Origin: Bacteroidota bacterium
GTDB lineage: Bacteria; Bacteroidota; Bacteroidia; UBA4408
NCBI GenBank assembly: GCA_016721765.1
Contig: JADKHO010000004.1
Span: forward strand, 288,088 to 352,087
Direction: 5' to 3'
Length of the DNA: 64,000 nucleotides
The notes beneath the pieces are model-generated. The model worked only from the letters and a program-made list of their open reading frames with translations. It did no database searches and was not told where the DNA came from. The translations under genes were made by a program, and so were the position numbers. Each line of letters begins with the position of its first letter. Position 1 is the first letter of the stretch. Positions 3,247-46,964 of this stretch are shown piece by piece.

Positions 3247-4578
3247 ATGCAACAGGTAGTAACGTATCGGAACATTTGGAAGATATCTTATCCTATTATT
3301 TTAGGAGGCATTGCTCAAACAGTGGTGAATGTCACCGACACCGCTTTCTTGGGGCGAGTGAGTGAAGTGGCATTAGGCGCTTCGGCTATAGCCGGACTTT
3401 TTTACGTTACCGTATTTATGCTCGGATTAGGCTTCAGCATAGGCACTCAAATTATTGTTGCGCGCTATGATGGAGAAAAAAACTTTAAAGAAATTGGGAA
3501 AGTGCTCGATCATTCCATCTATTTTATGTTACCCCTTGCCGTTTTTTTATTTGTTTCTTTAAAAATGCTCAGCCCCTGGCTCCTCTCCTATTTTGTAAAA
3601 TCGCCCGAAGTTTTGGCTTCCAGTATAATTTATATTGATAATCGTTGCTGGGGCATTTTGTTTGCCTTTGTTGGATTGTGTATTCGTTCCTTTTACATCG
3701 GAATTTCTAACACACGAATAGTAATTTATTCTACCTTGATTTCTGCGATATCAAATTTTATCTTGAACTACATATTAGTATTTGGTAAATTTGGATTTGC
3801 ACCAATGGGTATTGCCGGGTCTGCGTTGGCAAGCAGCATATCGGAAGTTATATCACTTTTGTTTGTGATTGGCTATACTTATGTTACCATGAATTTGGAA
3901 AAATATAATTTATTTGGTTTTGCAAAATTTGACGGTGCACGCATCAAAAGCATTTTTACTGTGGCTGCACCATCTATGTTTCAAACTTTTTTCGCAGTTT
4001 GGAGTTGGTTTGTTTTCTTTTTGATTGTTGAAAAAATGGGCGAACGGCCACTCGCTATTTCCAACTTAATTCGAAACATGTATATGATTTTGATGATTCC
4101 TTTGGTTGGATTTAGTTCTGCAACCAATACCTTGGTAAGTAATTTAATTGGACAAGGTCGGCAATCGGAGGTTTTTCTCATGATTAAAAAAATTGCATTC
4201 TTATCCTTTGCATTTACCTTAGCACTTACTTTATTAAACTTGCTCAATCCGCGTATTGCACTTTCGGTTTTTACAAACGATAGCAATTTAATTGAAGCCA
4301 CACTCGGCTCACTTTATGTTATTTGTGGTTCCTTGCTTCTATTTTCGGTAACCGCTGTATTGTTGAGTTCCGTTTCAGGATCAGGAAATACAATGGCTTC
4401 TCTTATAATCGAAACGCTTACTATTGCTTTTTATTTATTGGCAACCTGGTTTGCTGTACAACTCATGCATTGGCCCATCGAATTGGTTTGGTGTGTGGAA
4501 TATGTTTATTTTGCCTTTATGGGGATGCTTTCCGTGTGGTATTTAAAAAAGAAATTGCAACAAAAATTATATGCGTAA
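3247..4578 (+). CDS. MATE family efflux transporter
   Basis: Twelve-TM protein of 443 aa with an N-terminus typical of NorM/MATE (WKISYPIILGGIAQTVVNVTDTAFLGRV). Confidence 0.85.
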   Translation: MQQVVTYRNIWKISYPIILGGIAQTVVNVTDTAFLGRVSEVALGASAIAGLFYVTVFMLGLGFSIGTQIIVARYDGEKNFKEIGKVLDHSIYFMLPLAVFLFVSLKMLSPWLLSYFVKSPEVLASSIIYIDNRCWGILFAFVGLCIRSFYIGISNTRIVIYSTLISAISNFILNYILVFGKFGFAPMGIAGSALASSISEVISLLFVIGYTYVTMNLEKYNLFGFAKFDGARIKSIFTVAAPSMFQTFFAVWSWFVFFLIVEKMGERPLAISNLIRNMYMILMIPLVGFSSATNTLVSNLIGQGRQSEVFLMIKKIAFLSFAFTLALTLLNLLNPRIALSVFTNDSNLIEATLGSLYVICGSLLLFSVTAVLLSSVSGSGNTMASLIIETLTIAFYLLATWFAVQLMHWPIELVWCVEYVYFAFMGMLSVWYLKKKLQQKLYA

Positions 4579-5539
4579 AGATGAGTTAAGAATTGTGTTC
4601 ATGGGTACACCCGACTTTGCGGTTCCATCCTTAGAGATACTTATAAAAAATAAATATAATGTAGTGGGTGTGGTAACTGCTCCTGATAAACCCGCCGGCA
4701 GAGGCTTGCAGATACAAACCTCGGCAGTAAAGAAATTTGCTGTAGAAAATAATCTACATATTCTGCAACCGGAGAAATTGAAATCCGAAACATTTATTCA
4801 GGAACTAAAATCACTGAATGCCAATTTACAAATCGTGGTTGCTTTTAGAATGCTGCCCGAAATGGTATGGCAAATGCCGGAATTGGGAACTTTTAATTTA
4901 CATGGTTCTCTCTTACCTCAATACAGAGGAGCCGCACCTATCAATTGGGCAGTCATGAATGGTGAAAAAGAAACCGGGGTTACCACCTTTTTTCTGCAAC
5001 ACGAAATCGACACCGGGAAAATAATACATAGTGCCAAATGCCCAATAAATGCAGAAGATACAGCCGGAAGTATACACGATAAGTTGATGTTTATTGGAGC
5101 TGATTTAGTTTTAAAAACAGTTGAAGATATTGTATCAGGTGAATACAAAGTTATAGCACAAGATCAACTCTTAGTTGCAGAAAATGGATTAAAAATTGCA
5201 CCAAAAATCCACAAAGCAGATTGTAAAATAAATTGGGATAACAGTTGCGAAAACATTGTAAATAAAGTGCGGGGACTAAATCCTTTTCCTACCGCTTTCG
5301 CAGAATTCAAGCATGATTCAGAGACACTACTATTTAAAATTTTTGAAACAAAAAAAGAACAAACAGCACATGAAATTCCATTTGGACAGCTGGTGAGCGA
5401 CAACAAAAGCTTCTTAAAAGTAGCTGTCAGAGATGGTTTTGTGCAAATAAGCAGTCTGCAGTTGGCCGGAAAGAAACGGATGTCGGTGAGCGATTTCTTG
5501 CGTGGATATCAGTTTTCAGGAACTTGGATTGCAGTTTAA
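4571..5539 (+). CDS. fmt: Methionyl-tRNA formyltransferase
   Basis: Carries IVFMGTPDFAVPSLE and the HGSLLPQYRGAAPINWAV formyltransferase core. Overlaps the upstream gene by 8 nt. Confidence 0.95.
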   Translation: MRKDELRIVFMGTPDFAVPSLEILIKNKYNVVGVVTAPDKPAGRGLQIQTSAVKKFAVENNLHILQPEKLKSETFIQELKSLNANLQIVVAFRMLPEMVWQMPELGTFNLHGSLLPQYRGAAPINWAVMNGEKETGVTTFFLQHEIDTGKIIHSAKCPINAEDTAGSIHDKLMFIGADLVLKTVEDIVSGEYKVIAQDQLLVAENGLKIAPKIHKADCKINWDNSCENIVNKVRGLNPFPTAFAEFKHDSETLLFKIFETKKEQTAHEIPFGQLVSDNKSFLKVAVRDGFVQISSLQLAGKKRMSVSDFLRGYQFSGTWIAV

Positions 5540-5764
5540 CAAAACACAAATCAATTTCCTGAAACACCTTTAAATTCAGTACCTACAGAAGATTGAAAAC
5601 CAGTATTCGCCCTGCACAATGCACGCAGTATAGCTTGTAAAAAACACACTTTCTGTAAGTCAATGGGCATAGTACTTACACCCACAGTTATTAACAAAAA
5701 ATGCGATTTATCAACAAAATTGCATTTTTTCGTGCTACATCCTAGGAGTGTATTGTAATTCCTC

Positions 5765-5772
5765 TAAATTTG
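5765..5772 (+). promoter_or_regulatory. Candidate Bacteroidota sigma-A -7 element (TAAATTTG) upstream of the HU gene
   Basis: Matches the TAnnTTTG consensus about 55 nt upstream of the ATG at 5828. Confidence 0.3.
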
Positions 5773-5827
5773 CTCCTGTTCTAAACAATTAATTATTAAT
5801 TTTTAACCATTTAAAAAACAAATTAAA

Positions 5828-40179: not shown

Positions 40180-42585
40180 ATGAAATCAAAATTTTTTACC
40201 CTTGTCTTACTTTTTATTTTAGCCATTGCTGGTGATAGCAGTATCGCTCAAAATACAAATTGCCCAATTCCTTCAGGGCCTGTAACAACTGTGGTGAGCA
40301 CAACAAGTGCTACCGTTTCGTGGACGGCTCAAACCGCAAACGGATATTATAGAGTTCAATATCGCGCGCTTTCCTTGAGTTCCGGGACCTGGACGCAGAT
40401 GTATGCGCAAACAAATTCTTATACCATTAGTGGATTATTATGCGGAACTGCCTATGAATGGCAAGTTCAAGCAATTTGTGCCACTATTGGCGGAGTAGCC
40501 AATACCAGTGCTTTTACAACCAGTCTTGTTTTTACAACACTTCCCTGCAACACTACTTGCCTTCCGCCTACAGGCTTAAACACAAGCGCGATTGCAACAA
40601 ATAGCGCTGTTGCGAATTGGACAGCACAATCCGGCATTGGAGTTTACCGCATTCAATACCGACCGGTTACGAATGTAATTACTGCATGGACCCAAATTAC
40701 TGTGCAAGGTACAAGCTATACCATGGCAAATTTAATTTGTGGAGTAGCCTACGAGTGGCAAGTACAAACCCTATGCAGCACAGCCGGCACTGGAGGAACT
40801 AGCGCTTATTCATCAAGCACTGTGTTTACAACCTTAACTTGCCCCACCACTTGTCCTGTTCCTGCCGGTTTAACTGTTAGTTCAATTACAAGCACTGGTG
40901 CAACATTAAGTTGGACAAGCGCTTCGCCTGCACCGGCTTATTATCTGATACAATACCGCCCTTTGAATACTGTAGGTTGGACTTCCGTCACCGTTCAAGC
41001 AAATCAATCTTATACCTTAACCGGATTAAGTTGCAATACTGCTTATGAATGGAAGCTTCAATCCATTTGCGCTAATTCGGGAACAGCTGGTGGATCGAGT
41101 GCTTTTTCAACACCTTTATCTTTCACTACTTCAGCTTGCCCAACTCCAACCTGCGCAGTTCCAACAGGGCTTAACAGCAGCGCGGTTTCCTCAACAAGTG
41201 TTAATTTAGCTTGGACAGCAGCAAGTGGTGCTATTTACTACAAAATACAATATAGACCGTTAAATCCTGCCAATGCGAATTGGACACAAGTTTATGTAAC
41301 AGCCAACTCATCTTATATATTGAGCTCATTGGTTTGTGGAACGAGCTATGAATGGCAAGTACAATCTATTTGTTCTTCTGCAAGCAATGGTGGTTCGAGT
41401 GCATTTTCTACCTCCGCAACATTTTCGACTCTTGCTTGCACATCAACCTGTGCGGTGCCTAGCGGAATGACAACCGGAAATATTACTTCCTCATCGGCTG
41501 TTGCTTCTTGGACGGCAGTTGCGGGAGTGAGTATTTACAATTTGCAATATCGTTTAGTAACGAATGCAATTACCAATTGGACACAAGCTACTGTGCAGGG
41601 AACAACCTTTAGTTTAGCCAATTTAATGTGTGGAGCGCTTTATGAATGGCAGGTTGCTTCAGTTTGCACAAATACATTAAATGGGACATCGGTAATCAGC
41701 AGCTTTTCGCCAAGCACAACATTTACAACTTTGGCTTGTGCTACTACATGCCCGGTTCCTAGCGGATTAGCTTCTGGAAACATTACAGCATCGAGTGCGT
41801 ATGTTGGATGGGCAGCTGTATCTGGAGTTTATGCATATCGCATTCAATATCGCGCCATATTGCCTAATGTACCTCCAACCAATCCCTGGACACAAATCAG
41901 TTTGCAATCAAACACCACTACTTTAATTAATTTGCTCTGCAACACTAATTATGAATGGCAAGTACAATCCATTTGTACTACGGCAACAAATGGTACAAGT
42001 GCATTTTCATCTAGTTCATTCTTTACCACTTCTGCCTGCGCTAATTTATGCGCTGTGCCGCTTAATTTAATGGCAACAAACATTGCACCTCAAAGCTGTT
42101 TGGTTAAATGGACAAGCCCAACACCAGTGTTCGGATTTAGCATACGATATCGAAAAATAAATACTGGTGCTTGGACAGTTGTTAGTTCAAATACTTACTC
42201 CAAACAATTATTCGGACTACAGGCTCAATCTTATTATGAATGGCAAGTACAAAGTATTTGCACAACACCAGGAGGAACTACTGCCGGTTCAGTTAGTGCT
42301 TGGTCTCCCTCGTCTTATTTCCATACCCACTTTGTAATAGTAGTGGGTCCTAATCCGGCCGATAGGTTGTTAAAAGTGGAGATGGAGTTGAATGATACAG
42401 ATGAGACAGCCCACATCCAATTGCGCAACATATTGGGTGCAGTTGTTTTTAGTACAGAAAAAACTTTGTATGACGGAAAAAATGAATTAGAAATTGCGAC
42501 TGCTAATTTCACCGAAGGGCTTTACTTTTTAAGTGTGAGCGGCGTTTCAGGAAAACAGGTTTCAAAAGTATACGTGCGACATTAA
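40180..42585 (+). CDS. T9SS cargo protein with seven tandem fibronectin-type-III-like repeats
   Basis: Seven ~98 aa repeats, each with C..TC.VP.GL ... W...YR.QYR ... L.CGT.YEWQVQSIC. The C-terminal sorting domain is GPNPADRLLKV...GLYFLSV. Confidence 0.7.
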   Translation: MKSKFFTLVLLFILAIAGDSSIAQNTNCPIPSGPVTTVVSTTSATVSWTAQTANGYYRVQYRALSLSSGTWTQMYAQTNSYTISGLLCGTAYEWQVQAICATIGGVANTSAFTTSLVFTTLPCNTTCLPPTGLNTSAIATNSAVANWTAQSGIGVYRIQYRPVTNVITAWTQITVQGTSYTMANLICGVAYEWQVQTLCSTAGTGGTSAYSSSTVFTTLTCPTTCPVPAGLTVSSITSTGATLSWTSASPAPAYYLIQYRPLNTVGWTSVTVQANQSYTLTGLSCNTAYEWKLQSICANSGTAGGSSAFSTPLSFTTSACPTPTCAVPTGLNSSAVSSTSVNLAWTAASGAIYYKIQYRPLNPANANWTQVYVTANSSYILSSLVCGTSYEWQVQSICSSASNGGSSAFSTSATFSTLACTSTCAVPSGMTTGNITSSSAVASWTAVAGVSIYNLQYRLVTNAITNWTQATVQGTTFSLANLMCGALYEWQVASVCTNTLNGTSVISSFSPSTTFTTLACATTCPVPSGLASGNITASSAYVGWAAVSGVYAYRIQYRAILPNVPPTNPWTQISLQSNTTTLINLLCNTNYEWQVQSICTTATNGTSAFSSSSFFTTSACANLCAVPLNLMATNIAPQSCLVKWTSPTPVFGFSIRYRKINTGAWTVVSSNTYSKQLFGLQAQSYYEWQVQSICTTPGGTTAGSVSAWSPSSYFHTHFVIVVGPNPADRLLKVEMELNDTDETAHIQLRNILGAVVFSTEKTLYDGKNELEIATANFTEGLYFLSVSGVSGKQVSKVYVRH

Positions 42586-42709: not shown

Positions 42710-43792
42710 ATGCGATTTCCTTTTTCACTAAGGCTTGCGGGGATTCTTCTCTGCTTTGTGCTTTCCACAATCATTTTAGTTTATACCAAGGATTTTTTAT
42801 TGCCCATTATCATTTCTGCGCTGCTTTCCTTTTTACTCTATCCACTTTGCAGGAGGTTAGAAAAAATAAAAATTCCGCGGATTGCGGCAATCATGATATC
42901 GATGCTGATAGTGCTGCTTTTATTGGTGATGGTACTCATCTTTATCTCCTCACAAGTTTCAACTTTAGTGAGAGAAATGTCGGGGATGAATCAAAAATTG
43001 GAGTTTAAACTCAACATGTTGCATGAATACATTGTAACTCATTTCCCTATTTCAAATGATACACTGGACCAATGGATTGAAAATGGAAAAGTAAAAATTA
43101 TTGGCAATTTGGGTGAAATGCTTGGCGGAACTGTTTCTACCACCACTGAAATCATGAGTTATTTTGGACTAGTACCGGTTTATGTTTTTTGCTTTTTATT
43201 GTATAAAAAATCGTTTAAGGATTTTGCATTTTCATTGATTGATGGAGAGAAACATAGAGAAATTACACATCTACTCGGTAGCATTCAAAAACTGAGTCAG
43301 AATTATTTAATTGGTTTGTTTTCAGTAATCCTAATAATAGGAATATTGAATTCATTGGGCTTATGGATTATTGGAATAAACAATGCGCTATTTTTCGGGT
43401 TCTTTGCAGCTTTACTCACCATCATTCCTTACATTGGAATTTTTATTGGTTCACTCTTGCCAATCGCTTACGCTTTGCTCACAAAAGACTCGTTGGGAGC
43501 TGCCGCCGGAGTGGTTGTTGTTTTTTCGATTGTGCAAATTTTAGAATCAAATTATATCACACCCAGAGTGGTTGGTTCACGCGTGAGCATAAATCCATTT
43601 GCTGCCATAGTAGCTTTATTGGTGGGTGCCGAAATTTGGGGAGCAGCCGGAATGATACTCTCCATCCCGATAACGGCCATCTTAAAATTAATTTTTGATG
43701 CTCGCGAATCCACCAAAGCAATTGGATATTTTTTAGGAAGTGAATTAACGGATGAAAAAGACAATCCGGCTAAGACTTTGGGAAGAGATTAA
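42710..43792 (+). CDS. AI-2E family transporter (PerM/YdiK-like)
   Basis: 360 aa with 8 TM segments and a typical AI-2E N-terminus and core. Confidence 0.75.
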   Translation: MRFPFSLRLAGILLCFVLSTIILVYTKDFLLPIIISALLSFLLYPLCRRLEKIKIPRIAAIMISMLIVLLLLVMVLIFISSQVSTLVREMSGMNQKLEFKLNMLHEYIVTHFPISNDTLDQWIENGKVKIIGNLGEMLGGTVSTTTEIMSYFGLVPVYVFCFLLYKKSFKDFAFSLIDGEKHREITHLLGSIQKLSQNYLIGLFSVILIIGILNSLGLWIIGINNALFFGFFAALLTIIPYIGIFIGSLLPIAYALLTKDSLGAAAGVVVVFSIVQILESNYITPRVVGSRVSINPFAAIVALLVGAEIWGAAGMILSIPITAILKLIFDARESTKAIGYFLGSELTDEKDNPAKTLGRD

Positions 43793-44296
43793 CTATAAAC
43801 TATTTAATAAATCACGTTTTTTCTTACAACGTTGAATACTTGCCGCAGCACTATCAATCATTTTTTCATCAAATAAATTGACGATGTAATTTTTGTAAGC
43901 TGCAATTGCTTCATCATACTTCCCCATTGATTCATACATAATAGCATATTCATTTGCAAGGGTGGCGCGATTAATGCCGGGACAGGCTTCCGCCTTTTTT
44001 AATAGGCTTTCCAGCTCATCGTATTTCCTTATTGTGCTCAGCAAAATTGCATAATTGTAATATACGGCTGCGTAATCCGGTTTAAATTTAATAGCCAAAC
44101 GATAATGCTCTTCTGCTTTCGGCAAATCTTTGTGTTTGGTTTCATAAATCCAACCTAAATGATTGTGTGCCTTTCCAAAATCAGGGGCTTCTGCTAAAAC
44201 ATCGTGCAATACATTGATAGCATCGGCAATTTTATTTTCTTTAATGAGGAAGTCAGCATTTTCGAACATTTCCTCTAAGACATTAGTTGTAAGCAT
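43793..44296 (-). CDS. Small TPR-repeat protein
   Basis: 167 aa with 3-4 TPR-like helices. Confidence 0.5.
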   Translation of the reverse strand: MLTTNVLEEMFENADFLIKENKIADAINVLHDVLAEAPDFGKAHNHLGWIYETKHKDLPKAEEHYRLAIKFKPDYAAVYYNYAILLSTIRKYDELESLLKKAEACPGINRATLANEYAIMYESMGKYDEAIAAYKNYIVNLFDEKMIDSAAASIQRCKKKRDLLNSL

Positions 44297-44353: not shown

Positions 44354-45109
44354 TTAGGCAACAAAATACATATCGATCTCACCCTTGTTTTTGGCAGGAA
44401 TTTTTCCTCTATAAATGCAATTGAATTTATCTTTGACTTTTTGATAAGTGCTTCCGCTGATATTCACTTTACCTGCTTCTCCGCTAGATTCAAGTCGTGC
44501 AGCAATATTTACAGTATCGCCCCAAATATCATATGCGAATTTTTTGAACCCAACTATTCCTGCCACAACCGGTCCGGTGTGTATACCAATTCTGATTTCA
44601 AAAATTGCTTTGTGCTCGCTTTTTCTAACTTCAAGATGGCGCTGCATAAACTGATTAATTTCGATAGCAGCTTTAACGACATCTTCGGCATGCGTAGTAT
44701 TTACGACTGGCAATCCACCGGCACACATATACGCATCCCCAATAGTTTTAATTTTTTCGATTCCATGTTTTGAAATTATCTCATCAAAAGCCTTGAAACA
44801 GGTATGAATTTCAGCAACCAATTCGGCCGGATTCAAACTTTCGGATATTTGAGTAAAGCCTTTAAAATCGGTAAACATTACAGAAACTTCATCAAATTGC
44901 TTTGCTTCTGCACTTCCGGTATTTTTCAACTCTTCTGCCACTTCCGGTGGAAGAATATTTAGCAACAAATCATCACTTCTCTTTTTCTCATAGCTGATTT
45001 TTTTTCGTTGCTTGACAACTAATATTAAAAACAAAGCCACAATTGCAAGTACTAATATAATTCCATTTCGAATAATTGCCTGAACTCTTAAACGTTCCTG
45101 ATATTCCAA
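44354..45109 (-). CDS. Class III adenylate/guanylate cyclase catalytic domain with N-terminal TM helix (TTG start; downstream half of an interrupted gene)
   Basis: Cyclase core FTDFKGFT..IKTIGDAYMCAGG..GIHTGPVVAGIVG..YDIWGDTVNIAARLES. It is in frame with the upstream TPR ORF across a single TAA. Confidence 0.75.
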   Translation of the reverse strand: MEYQERLRVQAIIRNGIILVLAIVALFLILVVKQRKKISYEKKRSDDLLLNILPPEVAEELKNTGSAEAKQFDEVSVMFTDFKGFTQISESLNPAELVAEIHTCFKAFDEIISKHGIEKIKTIGDAYMCAGGLPVVNTTHAEDVVKAAIEINQFMQRHLEVRKSEHKAIFEIRIGIHTGPVVAGIVGFKKFAYDIWGDTVNIAARLESSGEAGKVNISGSTYQKVKDKFNCIYRGKIPAKNKGEIDMYFVA

Positions 45110-45124
45110 TTTTTCGGTCTTTAA

Positions 45125-46144
45125 TTAAAAATCTTTTAATGCGTTTTGCTTTATCATTTCGGAATAGGCCAATTGATTTCGCTTTACTAAAATGTTGGTA
45201 CTATCGTTCCAAGAAAAATACAAACGATGCGCCTCCAGCGCCTTTTGCGGCATGTTCATTTTTTCGTACAAATAGCTTAGTTGCAAATAAACATCTCTTA
45301 ATACAGATTTTGCCCTTCCTCCTTTTCCTGCTTCAATTGCAGCTGTAAAACATTGCAAGGCATTGGCATAATCACCCTTTCTGAAATAAATTTTCCCCAA
45401 TCCCTTTAAGGAACCTGCCTTCACAAAAAACTCCGAAGAATCGCTAAGGGATAAACTTTTGGTATAGTAAATAAACGCTGAATCAGGCCTTTCACTTTCC
45501 AAAAAAACATCTCCCATGAGTTGGCAATCGTTACCGATAGAGTATGTATTTTTGAATTTATGATCAGAAGCCAAGCATTGCCGCAAGAGTGATTCAGCTT
45601 TTTCATAATTTTTTAAGGATAAATAAACAGCCGCCACATTGCCGAGCAAAAACACTGCTAATTTTTCATTACCCAAGTGCTTATACACGTTTATGCCGGC
45701 ATTAAAAGCATCCAATGCCTTATCATACTCACCAAGGGAGGAGTAGGAAAGCCCTTCTGTATTGTATGAACTGGCCAACTGAATGCTATCTTTCATTTCA
45801 ATCGCAAGTGCCTTACGATATGAATTATATTCTATTGCCTTACTATACTCTTCAATCCGCCAATAATATCCGCTTAAATTACGATACGCACGAAATAACC
45901 CATTGGTGTAGTTGATTCTTTTTGAAATGGCAAGTGCAGAATCTTCAAATACTTTTTCCACGCCAGGAGAATGTGCATATAAGGCCGCAAACTTAAAGTA
46001 CTGTATAACCTTTGCAGTATCAGTAGTCATCGAATTTGCAACGCGTACTAAAGAGTCAGGATTGGGATTGGAAACGGAGGCACTTGCCTTCAAAAAAAGG
46101 CAACATCCCAAAGAAAACATTAACCAAATTTGGCCCAATTTCAT
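45125..46144 (-). CDS. Secreted TPR-repeat protein (upstream half of the split sensor-cyclase)
   Basis: Signal peptide plus multiple TPR-like repeats. Confidence 0.6.
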   Translation of the reverse strand: MKLGQIWLMFSLGCCLFLKASASVSNPNPDSLVRVANSMTTDTAKVIQYFKFAALYAHSPGVEKVFEDSALAISKRINYTNGLFRAYRNLSGYYWRIEEYSKAIEYNSYRKALAIEMKDSIQLASSYNTEGLSYSSLGEYDKALDAFNAGINVYKHLGNEKLAVFLLGNVAAVYLSLKNYEKAESLLRQCLASDHKFKNTYSIGNDCQLMGDVFLESERPDSAFIYYTKSLSLSDSSEFFVKAGSLKGLGKIYFRKGDYANALQCFTAAIEAGKGGRAKSVLRDVYLQLSYLYEKMNMPQKALEAHRLYFSWNDSTNILVKRNQLAYSEMIKQNALKDF

Positions 46145-46289: not shown

Positions 46290-46964
46290 TTAGTTAAACT
46301 TGGTTGCTCTTCTATCTTGTCGCATTAATTTTTTTACTTTCTTGCCTCGTGTTCCTTGCAAGCGCTCCCATTTGCTTACCCTATCCCACAGTGGCACCGT
46401 ATAATTAGGGTTTCGAGCTGATGAACCATCAATAGCAACACTAATCTTATTAACTGTTCTCAGCGTATCCACAATGAATGGAATTCGAATTACATGCGGT
46501 TTAAATTTACGCAATAGGCTTTTTAATAAGGTTGCTTGAAAGGGATCAGTTATTAATGCCACCTTTTTAAAACCTAAACTATCCGCCATCTTGTGCCCGT
46601 AGTAAACATTTTCTACACTGTGCTCTGCTTCAATTTCGGCAAAGCAATTCTCTTTTGGAACACCCATTTTTTGTGCATATAAACACATAATTTTTCCTTC
46701 ATAAAATGGAGAATAAACGGAGCCTCCCGAAAAAATCAGGTTCTTCACTACACCTCTTTTGTATAAGTGCACCGCCCATATTACTCTTCCTTTCATCGCC
46801 GAATCCCAGCCACTTTCCACCCAAGGAACTCCGGGTACAATTCCAGCATCAAAAGGCGTCTTTTGAATTGCTTTTCGGTAAAGTTTTGTGGAATTGTTAT
46901 TAAAAAAAACACAAGAGCTTAAGAGAAATAGCACAGGGATTATAATTAAAAAATTCTTCATCAT
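46290..46964 (-). CDS. DUF218/YdcF (ElyC-like) family lipoprotein
   Basis: Lipobox LLSSC and a DUF218-like core (LIFSGG). Confidence 0.6.
   Translation of the reverse strand: MMKNFLIIIPVLFLLSSCVFFNNNSTKLYRKAIQKTPFDAGIVPGVPWVESGWDSAMKGRVIWAVHLYKRGVVKNLIFSGGSVYSPFYEGKIMCLYAQKMGVPKENCFAEIEAEHSVENVYYGHKMADSLGFKKVALITDPFQATLLKSLLRKFKPHVIRIPFIVDTLRTVNKISVAIDGSSARNPNYTVPLWDRVSKWERLQGTRGKKVKKLMRQDRRATKFN

Follow-up and report, generated by a model that had tools for sequence, protein, structure and literature searches.

The locus at positions 44354..46144 (minus strand) of the window, by which we mean the whole stretch of 64,000 nucleotides analysed here, carries a predicted sensor adenylate cyclase gene that is cut in two by one nonsense codon. 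Comparison with an intact orthologue traces this stop to a single base change, and we put the probability at roughly 80% that the TAA-bearing copy is a loss-of-function allele or young pseudogene of a redundant family, as judged from the sequences compared below.

Two ORFs in the same frame, parted by one internal TAA, make up the locus, and reading through both yields 596 sense codons plus the internal stop. The upstream ORF (45125..46144, minus strand) opens with an ATG at 46144..46142 and comprises 339 codons that end in ...ALKDF-TAA, the premature stop being codon 340 (45125..45127, minus strand). Between this stop and the TTG of codon 346 (45107..45109, minus strand) lie the sense codons 341-345 (TTA AAG ACC GAA AAA, encoding LKTEK; 45110..45124, minus strand), while the TTG itself is directly preceded by AAAAA and is the annotated start of the 251-aa protein MBL0049492.1. 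The downstream ORF of 251 codons (44354..45109, minus strand) opens at this TTG, covers the TM segment and the class III cyclase domain and finishes at the natural stop of the ancestral gene, a TAA at 44354..44356 (minus strand). Coordinates and wording of the preliminary description, which had placed five sense codons and an in-frame TTG after ALKDF-TAA, proved to be exact. In the NCBI annotation the upstream half is the "tetratricopeptide repeat protein" MBL0049493.1, which matches P0001 exactly, and the downstream half, with the locus tag IPP32_15505, is listed as the "hypothetical protein" MBL0049492.1; both are deposited from a MAG, on a contig of 947,657 bp. Long ORFs, defined as those of at least 150 aa, number 52 and cover 88% of the window; the pair described here is the only same-frame split pair among them, and no paralogues of the cyclase family were found elsewhere inside the window.

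An exact-sequence cluster look-up grouped both halves with a third protein, P0122, which is a single chain called at 588 aa and containing ...ALKDFQLKTEKLEYQEH.... Its contig (L002; JBQVBN010049906.1 of GCA_054403415.1, 7121 bp) shares with the window the gene order FAD oxidoreductase, DUF218, cyclase gene and 167-aa TPR gene, the two sequences being 90.9% identical over 4380 bp at the nucleotide level and P0122 being 92% identical at the protein level. Measured from a shared upstream ATG, the gene is 1791 nt long in both, with 0 indels and 179 mismatches. On L002 it forms one uninterrupted 596-codon gene in which codon 340 is CAA (Gln) instead of the TAA of the window, and the lesion is therefore, on this comparison, one C to T transition in the preferred Gln codon with the derived state in the window; the intact state is represented by this one orthologue (n=1), from a 7-kb metagenome contig. 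The base concerned lies at position 45127 of the window, an A on the plus strand where G would be expected in the intact allele. An origin of the stop from TTA had been suggested by aligning 119 more distant relatives (38-55% identical), 86 of which have a gap in the stop column, with Leu standing there in 29 of the remaining 33; this inference was overruled by the CAA (Gln) of L002. The proposal that one ancestral gene with TPR, TM and class III cyclase parts had been cut by a nonsense codon is thus borne out by the alignment with an orthologue that is one gene and not two, and of the causes that the preliminary description had offered, a recent nonsense mutation is the one to which the data point.

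Around the TTG, the intact state has been preserved. Codon 346 is an internal TTG (Leu) in the intact L002 gene as well, the residues LKTEK are identical there, and, apart from the stop itself and a single synonymous change, window and L002 agree in the 20 nt around this TTG. Downstream of the stop, an in-frame ATG first appears at codon 423, inside the catalytic domain. No gained start signal was found for the downstream half: there is no new ATG, and TTG346 together with its upstream 20 nt is ancestral coding sequence.

Membership of a large family of single-chain proteins is apparent from a search with the fused 596-aa query (X at the stop), which retrieved more than 6000 relatives. In 119 of the best 120, TPR and PF00211 sit together on a single protein of 509-855 aa (mostly 590-730 aa), and the other match is the window's own 339-aa TPR half; the query spans 88-100% of most matches. 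The nearest relative in this search is 55% identical, and such relatives are paralogues, not orthologues. Because 119 of the 120 best relatives are single proteins and the 90%-identical orthologue is collinear across the stop, the in-frame continuity of the two halves is not due to chance. In 79 species-representative genomes or loci, 96 of 98 matches that span the junction were uninterrupted, while the other two (L023 and L060) contain an in-frame stop at other positions, and occasional broken copies are therefore normal in this redundant family. Bacteroidota MAGs show a huge expansion of the family, often with copies in tandem; at one locus (L005), for instance, 12 kb contain four matches of nearly full length and a partial one that includes the cyclase. 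The genome-contig scan with P0122 returned 79 loci, all of them paralogues or distant relatives with best identities of 55-80% that came from partial or cyclase-domain matches only; it yielded no further orthologue and no outgroup near enough to polarise synonymous changes. Among JGI metagenome contigs, the scan for the exact junction pattern GATTTTNAATTAAAGACNGAAAAA gave no extra alleles, and its two candidates (L003 and L004) were dismissed as chance matches that encode no relative. Two further candidates, L046 and L082, had been considered as natural short TM-cyclase genes and turned out to be the C-termini of sensor proteins of 1175 aa and 700 aa, respectively.

The N-terminal half (codons 1-339; 45128..46144, minus strand) is a predicted periplasmic sensor composed of a signal peptide and about 7 TPR hairpins, and it matches TPR families in Pfam (TPR_12, E=1.4e-24). 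The predicted signal peptide (residues 1-23; 46076..46144, minus strand) consists of MK, the hydrophobic stretch IWLMFSLGCCLFL and ASA, with the putative cleavage site before the following S placed from the A-x-A motif; a signal-like hydropathy peak is seen at residues 6-24. A single predicted TM helix, GIILVLAIVALFLILVV (residues ~361-377; 45014..45064, minus strand), coincides with the hydropathy maximum of 2.76 at residues 357-379, is also a helix in the AlphaFold model of the orthologue and is directly followed by KQRKK, which fits the positive-inside rule. It leads into a juxtamembrane cytoplasmic helix, KKRSDDLLLNILPPEVAEELK (residues 386-406; 44927..44989, minus strand), which weakly matches the HNOBA profile at its C-terminal end and aligns with the pre-catalytic helices of AC9, and whose LLxNILPxExAxEL columns are invariant in the family alignment. 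We take this helix to be the conserved linker that precedes class IIIa cyclase domains, the "cyclase-transducer element".

The class III (IIIa-like) cyclase domain occupies residues 413-595 (44360..44908, minus strand) and matches PF00211 (Guanylate_cyc) over positions 2-181 of the 183 in the profile (E=1.2e-55), scoring 188.4 bits where the gathering score is 21.9. Its catalytic motifs are present as MFTD (D426), KTIGD (K466 and D470) and YDIWGDTVNIAAR (D539, N546 and R550). From what is generally held for class III cyclases, these residues would provide a metal-binding Asp pair, a Lys/Asp pair that specifies adenine and an Asn/Arg pair that acts on the transition state. The cyclase half thus carries the full homodimer-type catalytic set, all in one chain. 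Matches of the catalytic domain in the PDB comprise AC9, AC8, AC5 and mycobacterial chains of the Cya/Rv1625c type (E 4e-61 to 8e-46).

The AlphaFold model used was that of the intact orthologue P0122, with a mean pLDDT of 84 and values above 90 through the TPR and cyclase domains. It contains about 14 stacked TPR helices, with helix pairs at residues 21-287 (pLDDT >90), followed by a continuous helix (291-352) that runs to the TM helix, a further helix and the alpha/beta cyclase fold. In this model Gln340 (P0122 residue 332) is located inside the connecting helix 291-352, on the periplasmic side and about 20 residues before the membrane. On the strength of this architecture and of what is known of the family, the intact protein is best read as a periplasmic TPR sensor that would signal via the TM and transducer helices to a dimeric adenylate cyclase. 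No characterised member of the Bacteroidota TPR-TM-cyclase subfamily was found.

The stop allele recurs in two further assemblies. A Logan contig (L001, run SRR11673995) agrees with the window at 100% identity across 4293 bp that include the TAA. The TAA is likewise found on a contig of a third assembly (L084; JAHZTJ011338277.1 of GCA_020051655.1, 1278 bp) at 99.84% identity, its 2 SNPs corresponding to a synonymous difference at codon 289 and Met298Val. The allele is therefore common to at least two haplotypes and is not a singleton; the three TAA-bearing assemblies, the window among them, may come from the same site or project. A literature search on the run and assembly accessions found nothing on their origin; to judge by naming patterns, the MAG may belong to the Danish long-read project on activated sludge (PRJNA629478). 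The difference between haplotypes (2 of 1278 positions, 0.16%) fits a very recent lesion.

Constraint on the two halves was estimated by a Nei-Gojobori calculation of window against L002, which integrates the entire divergence of about 10%. The dN/dS ratio was 0.079 for the whole gene (dS 0.46), 0.118 for the TPR half (dS 0.314) and 0.050 after the stop (dS 0.709). When the 43 amino-acid differences were polarised against 119 homologues, 15 could be assigned to the window branch and 17 to that of L002, the counts being 9 and 9 for the TPR half and 6 and 8 for the part behind the stop. All 75 family-invariant columns of a 46-sequence family alignment, the catalytic residues included, are kept in the window copy. 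In this comparison neither relaxed constraint nor further lesions were detected in the window copy, which shows 0 indels and no branch asymmetry. By rough estimate, with about 1400 nonsynonymous sites, a neutral divergence of 1% would have added about 14 replacements to the window branch, and none of this excess is seen. Since excess replacements are missing on the window branch, the lesion can be placed as young relative to the divergence of about 10% from the intact orthologue, and if the gene is dead, its death would, on these rough figures, be very recent. The missing signs of decay are what is expected if the mutation is very recent; they therefore date the lesion and do not exclude a pseudogene. 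On their own, the intact halves are equally compatible with a young pseudogene and with a split still under selection.

A sequencing or assembly error, in which the true codon would be CAA and the gene intact in the organism, had been among the options of the preliminary description, and it draws on the facts that the source is a MAG, that the whole question turns on one base and that NCBI annotated two ordinary CDSs without comment. We hold it to be very unlikely, with the TAA recurring in the separately assembled Logan contig and in another assembly's contig that represents a different haplotype; moreover, one base has been substituted and no homopolymer has changed in length, and the 64-kb window shows no further disrupted reading frames. 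With one split pair among the 52 long ORFs and the 88% coverage, there is therefore no sign of a generally error-ridden assembly. The frame is kept across the stop, which would suit programmed read-through or a reassigned TAA and a full-length protein that is still made, although any nonsense substitution keeps the frame. This explanation is harder still to credit and has only a marginal probability: TAA is the commonest stop in the window and ends 35 of the 52 long ORFs, this gene included, the premature stop stands in the TAA-T context that is also the commonest tetranucleotide context of genuine terminators in the window, and the stop is not conserved, the orthologue having CAA. To our knowledge, there is no bacterial code in which TAA is reassigned, and on the stop-codon usage of the window an alternative genetic code or read-through was rejected as a candidate.

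The change from C to T turns Gln340 into a stop within the periplasmic helix that links the last TPR to the membrane anchor. Translation would be expected to end at TAA-T, leaving a TPR fragment that would be unanchored and would have no output domain, and the TM-cyclase part would probably be unmade or made in traces only. With TAA at codon 340 the window copy does not encode the one-polypeptide architecture of signal peptide/TPR, TM and cyclase. A different outcome is predicted by gene fission in progress, in which re-initiation at TTG346 would give a sensor-less membrane cyclase and a separately exported TPR protein, both of them selected; the cyclase product would consist of a short N-out tail, the TM helix and the cyclase domain, and the products might associate in the periplasm. 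Both halves are intact, with dN/dS values of 0.12 and 0.05 and every invariant residue retained, and the stop allele occurs in two haplotypes, all of which would be in keeping with fission; yet dN/dS spans the whole 10% divergence and is silent on the time since the mutation, and TAA haplotypes that differ at 2 of 1278 positions give no power to detect selection. The topology would be viable, in that the TPR half brings a signal peptide of its own and the cyclase half starts about 15 residues before the TM helix, which is then followed by KQRKK. As to the start, Bacteroidia initiate without Shine-Dalgarno pairing and favour A-rich leaders and an A at -3, features that promote such initiation in this group (PMC6847099). 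TTG346 is only 15 nt away from the stop and its surroundings are A-rich, with AAAAA before it and an A at -3, so that some re-initiation there is conceivable. Against this, neither the TTG nor its context has departed from the ancestral coding sequence, and ATG is by far the most frequent start in the window (46 of the 52 long ORFs); that the cyclase half is made via re-initiation at the TTG seems unlikely from these features. Nor is there a split in the intact orthologue or in 96 of the 98 other family copies, the stops of the two exceptions lying elsewhere, and in this family the cyclase module invariably comes with a fused sensor, be it of the TPR, the beta-propeller/Y_Y_Y-like or the 7TM type. 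Fission in progress is accordingly given a low probability, and the genuinely two-part arrangement suggested earlier finds no backing in a TTG that is an unchanged Leu codon in L002 and bears no start-site adaptation. The specific claim that the TAA allele is maintained and not decaying, with TTG re-initiation giving a free periplasmic TPR protein and a sensor-less membrane cyclase, we likewise consider improbable, and marginally more so; if it were true, the maintained allele would be a natural snapshot of the uncoupling of sensor and output through a single base change.

A loss-of-function allele or young pseudogene thus remains the favoured reading, and the feature itself is a real and recent nonsense allele, of an ordinary and well-known kind, in one copy of a Bacteroidota family rich in paralogues. 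Its immediate use is a correction of the annotation: MBL0049493.1 and MBL0049492.1 are the two parts of a single gene for a sensor adenylate cyclase that has been interrupted, and neither should be counted as a stand-alone TPR protein or a stand-alone short cyclase. The locus is also an example of gene turnover among the sensor cyclases of Bacteroidota, a very large family amplified in tandem. It would be of specialist interest only if the downstream half were proved to be expressed, and it opens no long-standing question.

The closest known systems are the Bacteroidota TPR-TM-class III cyclases (P0002-P0120 and P0122), which have the same domain order and, if the stop is read through, the same length (596 aa), with P0122 being 92% and the others 38-55% identical. 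Their motifs RNG-TM-QRNKI-KKRSDELLLNILP and their cyclase core are all present in the window copy, which, unlike them, is interrupted at codon 340 and has no single polypeptide. These proteins are annotated as "adenylate/guanylate cyclase domain-containing proteins", are uncharacterised and are highly paralogous. Within the same family, L046 (1175 aa; repeat/propeller/Y_Y_Y-type) and L082 (700 aa; multi-TM) have a cyclase module that is 70-80% identical, including the KKKSDDLLLNILP linker, while their extracytoplasmic sensor domains differ from the TPR sensor of the window gene; these two bear out that the cyclase module always comes covalently joined to a sensor.

Among class IIIa cyclases, the catalytic domain and transducer helix of mycobacterial Rv1625c/Cya and of mammalian ACs align with those of the window protein, in which the metal Asp pair and the Lys/Asp and Asn/Arg pairs are found in one chain, as in homodimeric cyclases. 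The anchors differ, Rv1625c having 6 TM helices and mammalian ACs having 12 together with two pseudo-symmetric domains, whereas a single TM helix anchors the window protein, whose predicted periplasmic sensor is of the TPR type. With ordinary nonsense pseudogenes and split CDS pairs, finally, the locus shares the single transition, the intact orthologue and the two adjacent same-frame CDS calls. Nothing material sets it apart from an ordinary split CDS, and it is unusual only in that the downstream piece starts just before the TM helix, with a possible TTG start nearby.

The gene that carries the premature stop, encoding a TPR-TM-class III cyclase, lies between two genes on the same strand. 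A DUF218 gene (46290..46964, minus strand) is located 145 nt upstream and a gene for a cytoplasmic-looking TPR protein of 167 aa (43793..44296, minus strand) 57 nt downstream, and this order of DUF218, cyclase and 167-aa TPR genes is kept in L002, the syntenic contig with an intact cyclase gene. If all three are transcribed together, the premature stop might also have a polar effect on the TPR gene that follows.

Comparison of L002 with the window revealed that L002 has approximately 1.36 kb of additional DNA, which separates the AI-2E transporter gene from the gene for the 167-aa TPR protein. This segment (L002 about 4380-5742, corresponding to window 43792/43793) codes for a protein of 352 aa that carries a T9SS Por_Secre_tail. 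On either side of the segment lies one copy of a 66-bp direct repeat (98.5% identical; L002 about 4306-4371 and about 5752-5817), which duplicates the 3'-terminal part of the TPR gene. The convergent genes 42710..43792 (plus strand) and 43793..44296 (minus strand) adjoin without a spacer in the window. Either L002 may have gained this segment by insertion, or the window may have lost it through a repeat-mediated deletion. The window also encodes an 801-aa secreted protein (40180..42585, plus strand) with at least five fibronectin type III repeats (fn3, E=3.8e-52), which is marked as a repetitive cell-surface protein by these repeats, the recurring motif ...YEWQVQ(S/T)(I/L)C... and the T9SS sorting domain (Por_Secre_tail) at its C-terminus.

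L001, the short Logan contig that confirms the stop, ends at window 44852, within the sequence for the cyclase domain and close to its conserved ...FTDFKGFT... region. This end may represent an assembly-graph break caused by k-mers common to paralogues or by strain variation. In several Bacteroidota MAGs, three to five TPR-cyclase paralogues are arranged in tandem within about 10 kb, as in the locus L005 (CAYSPG010000001.1, 2936-11750) and at the further loci L006, L063 and L082, which indicates that this sensor-cyclase family has been amplified locally. Apparent in-frame stops within otherwise full-length TPR-cyclase matches were detected at two loci from species-representative MAGs, L023 (5001-6533) and L060 (4545-6413); broken copies therefore recur in the TPR-cyclase family, with 2 of the 98 matches in species-representative MAGs (roughly 2%) apparently affected.
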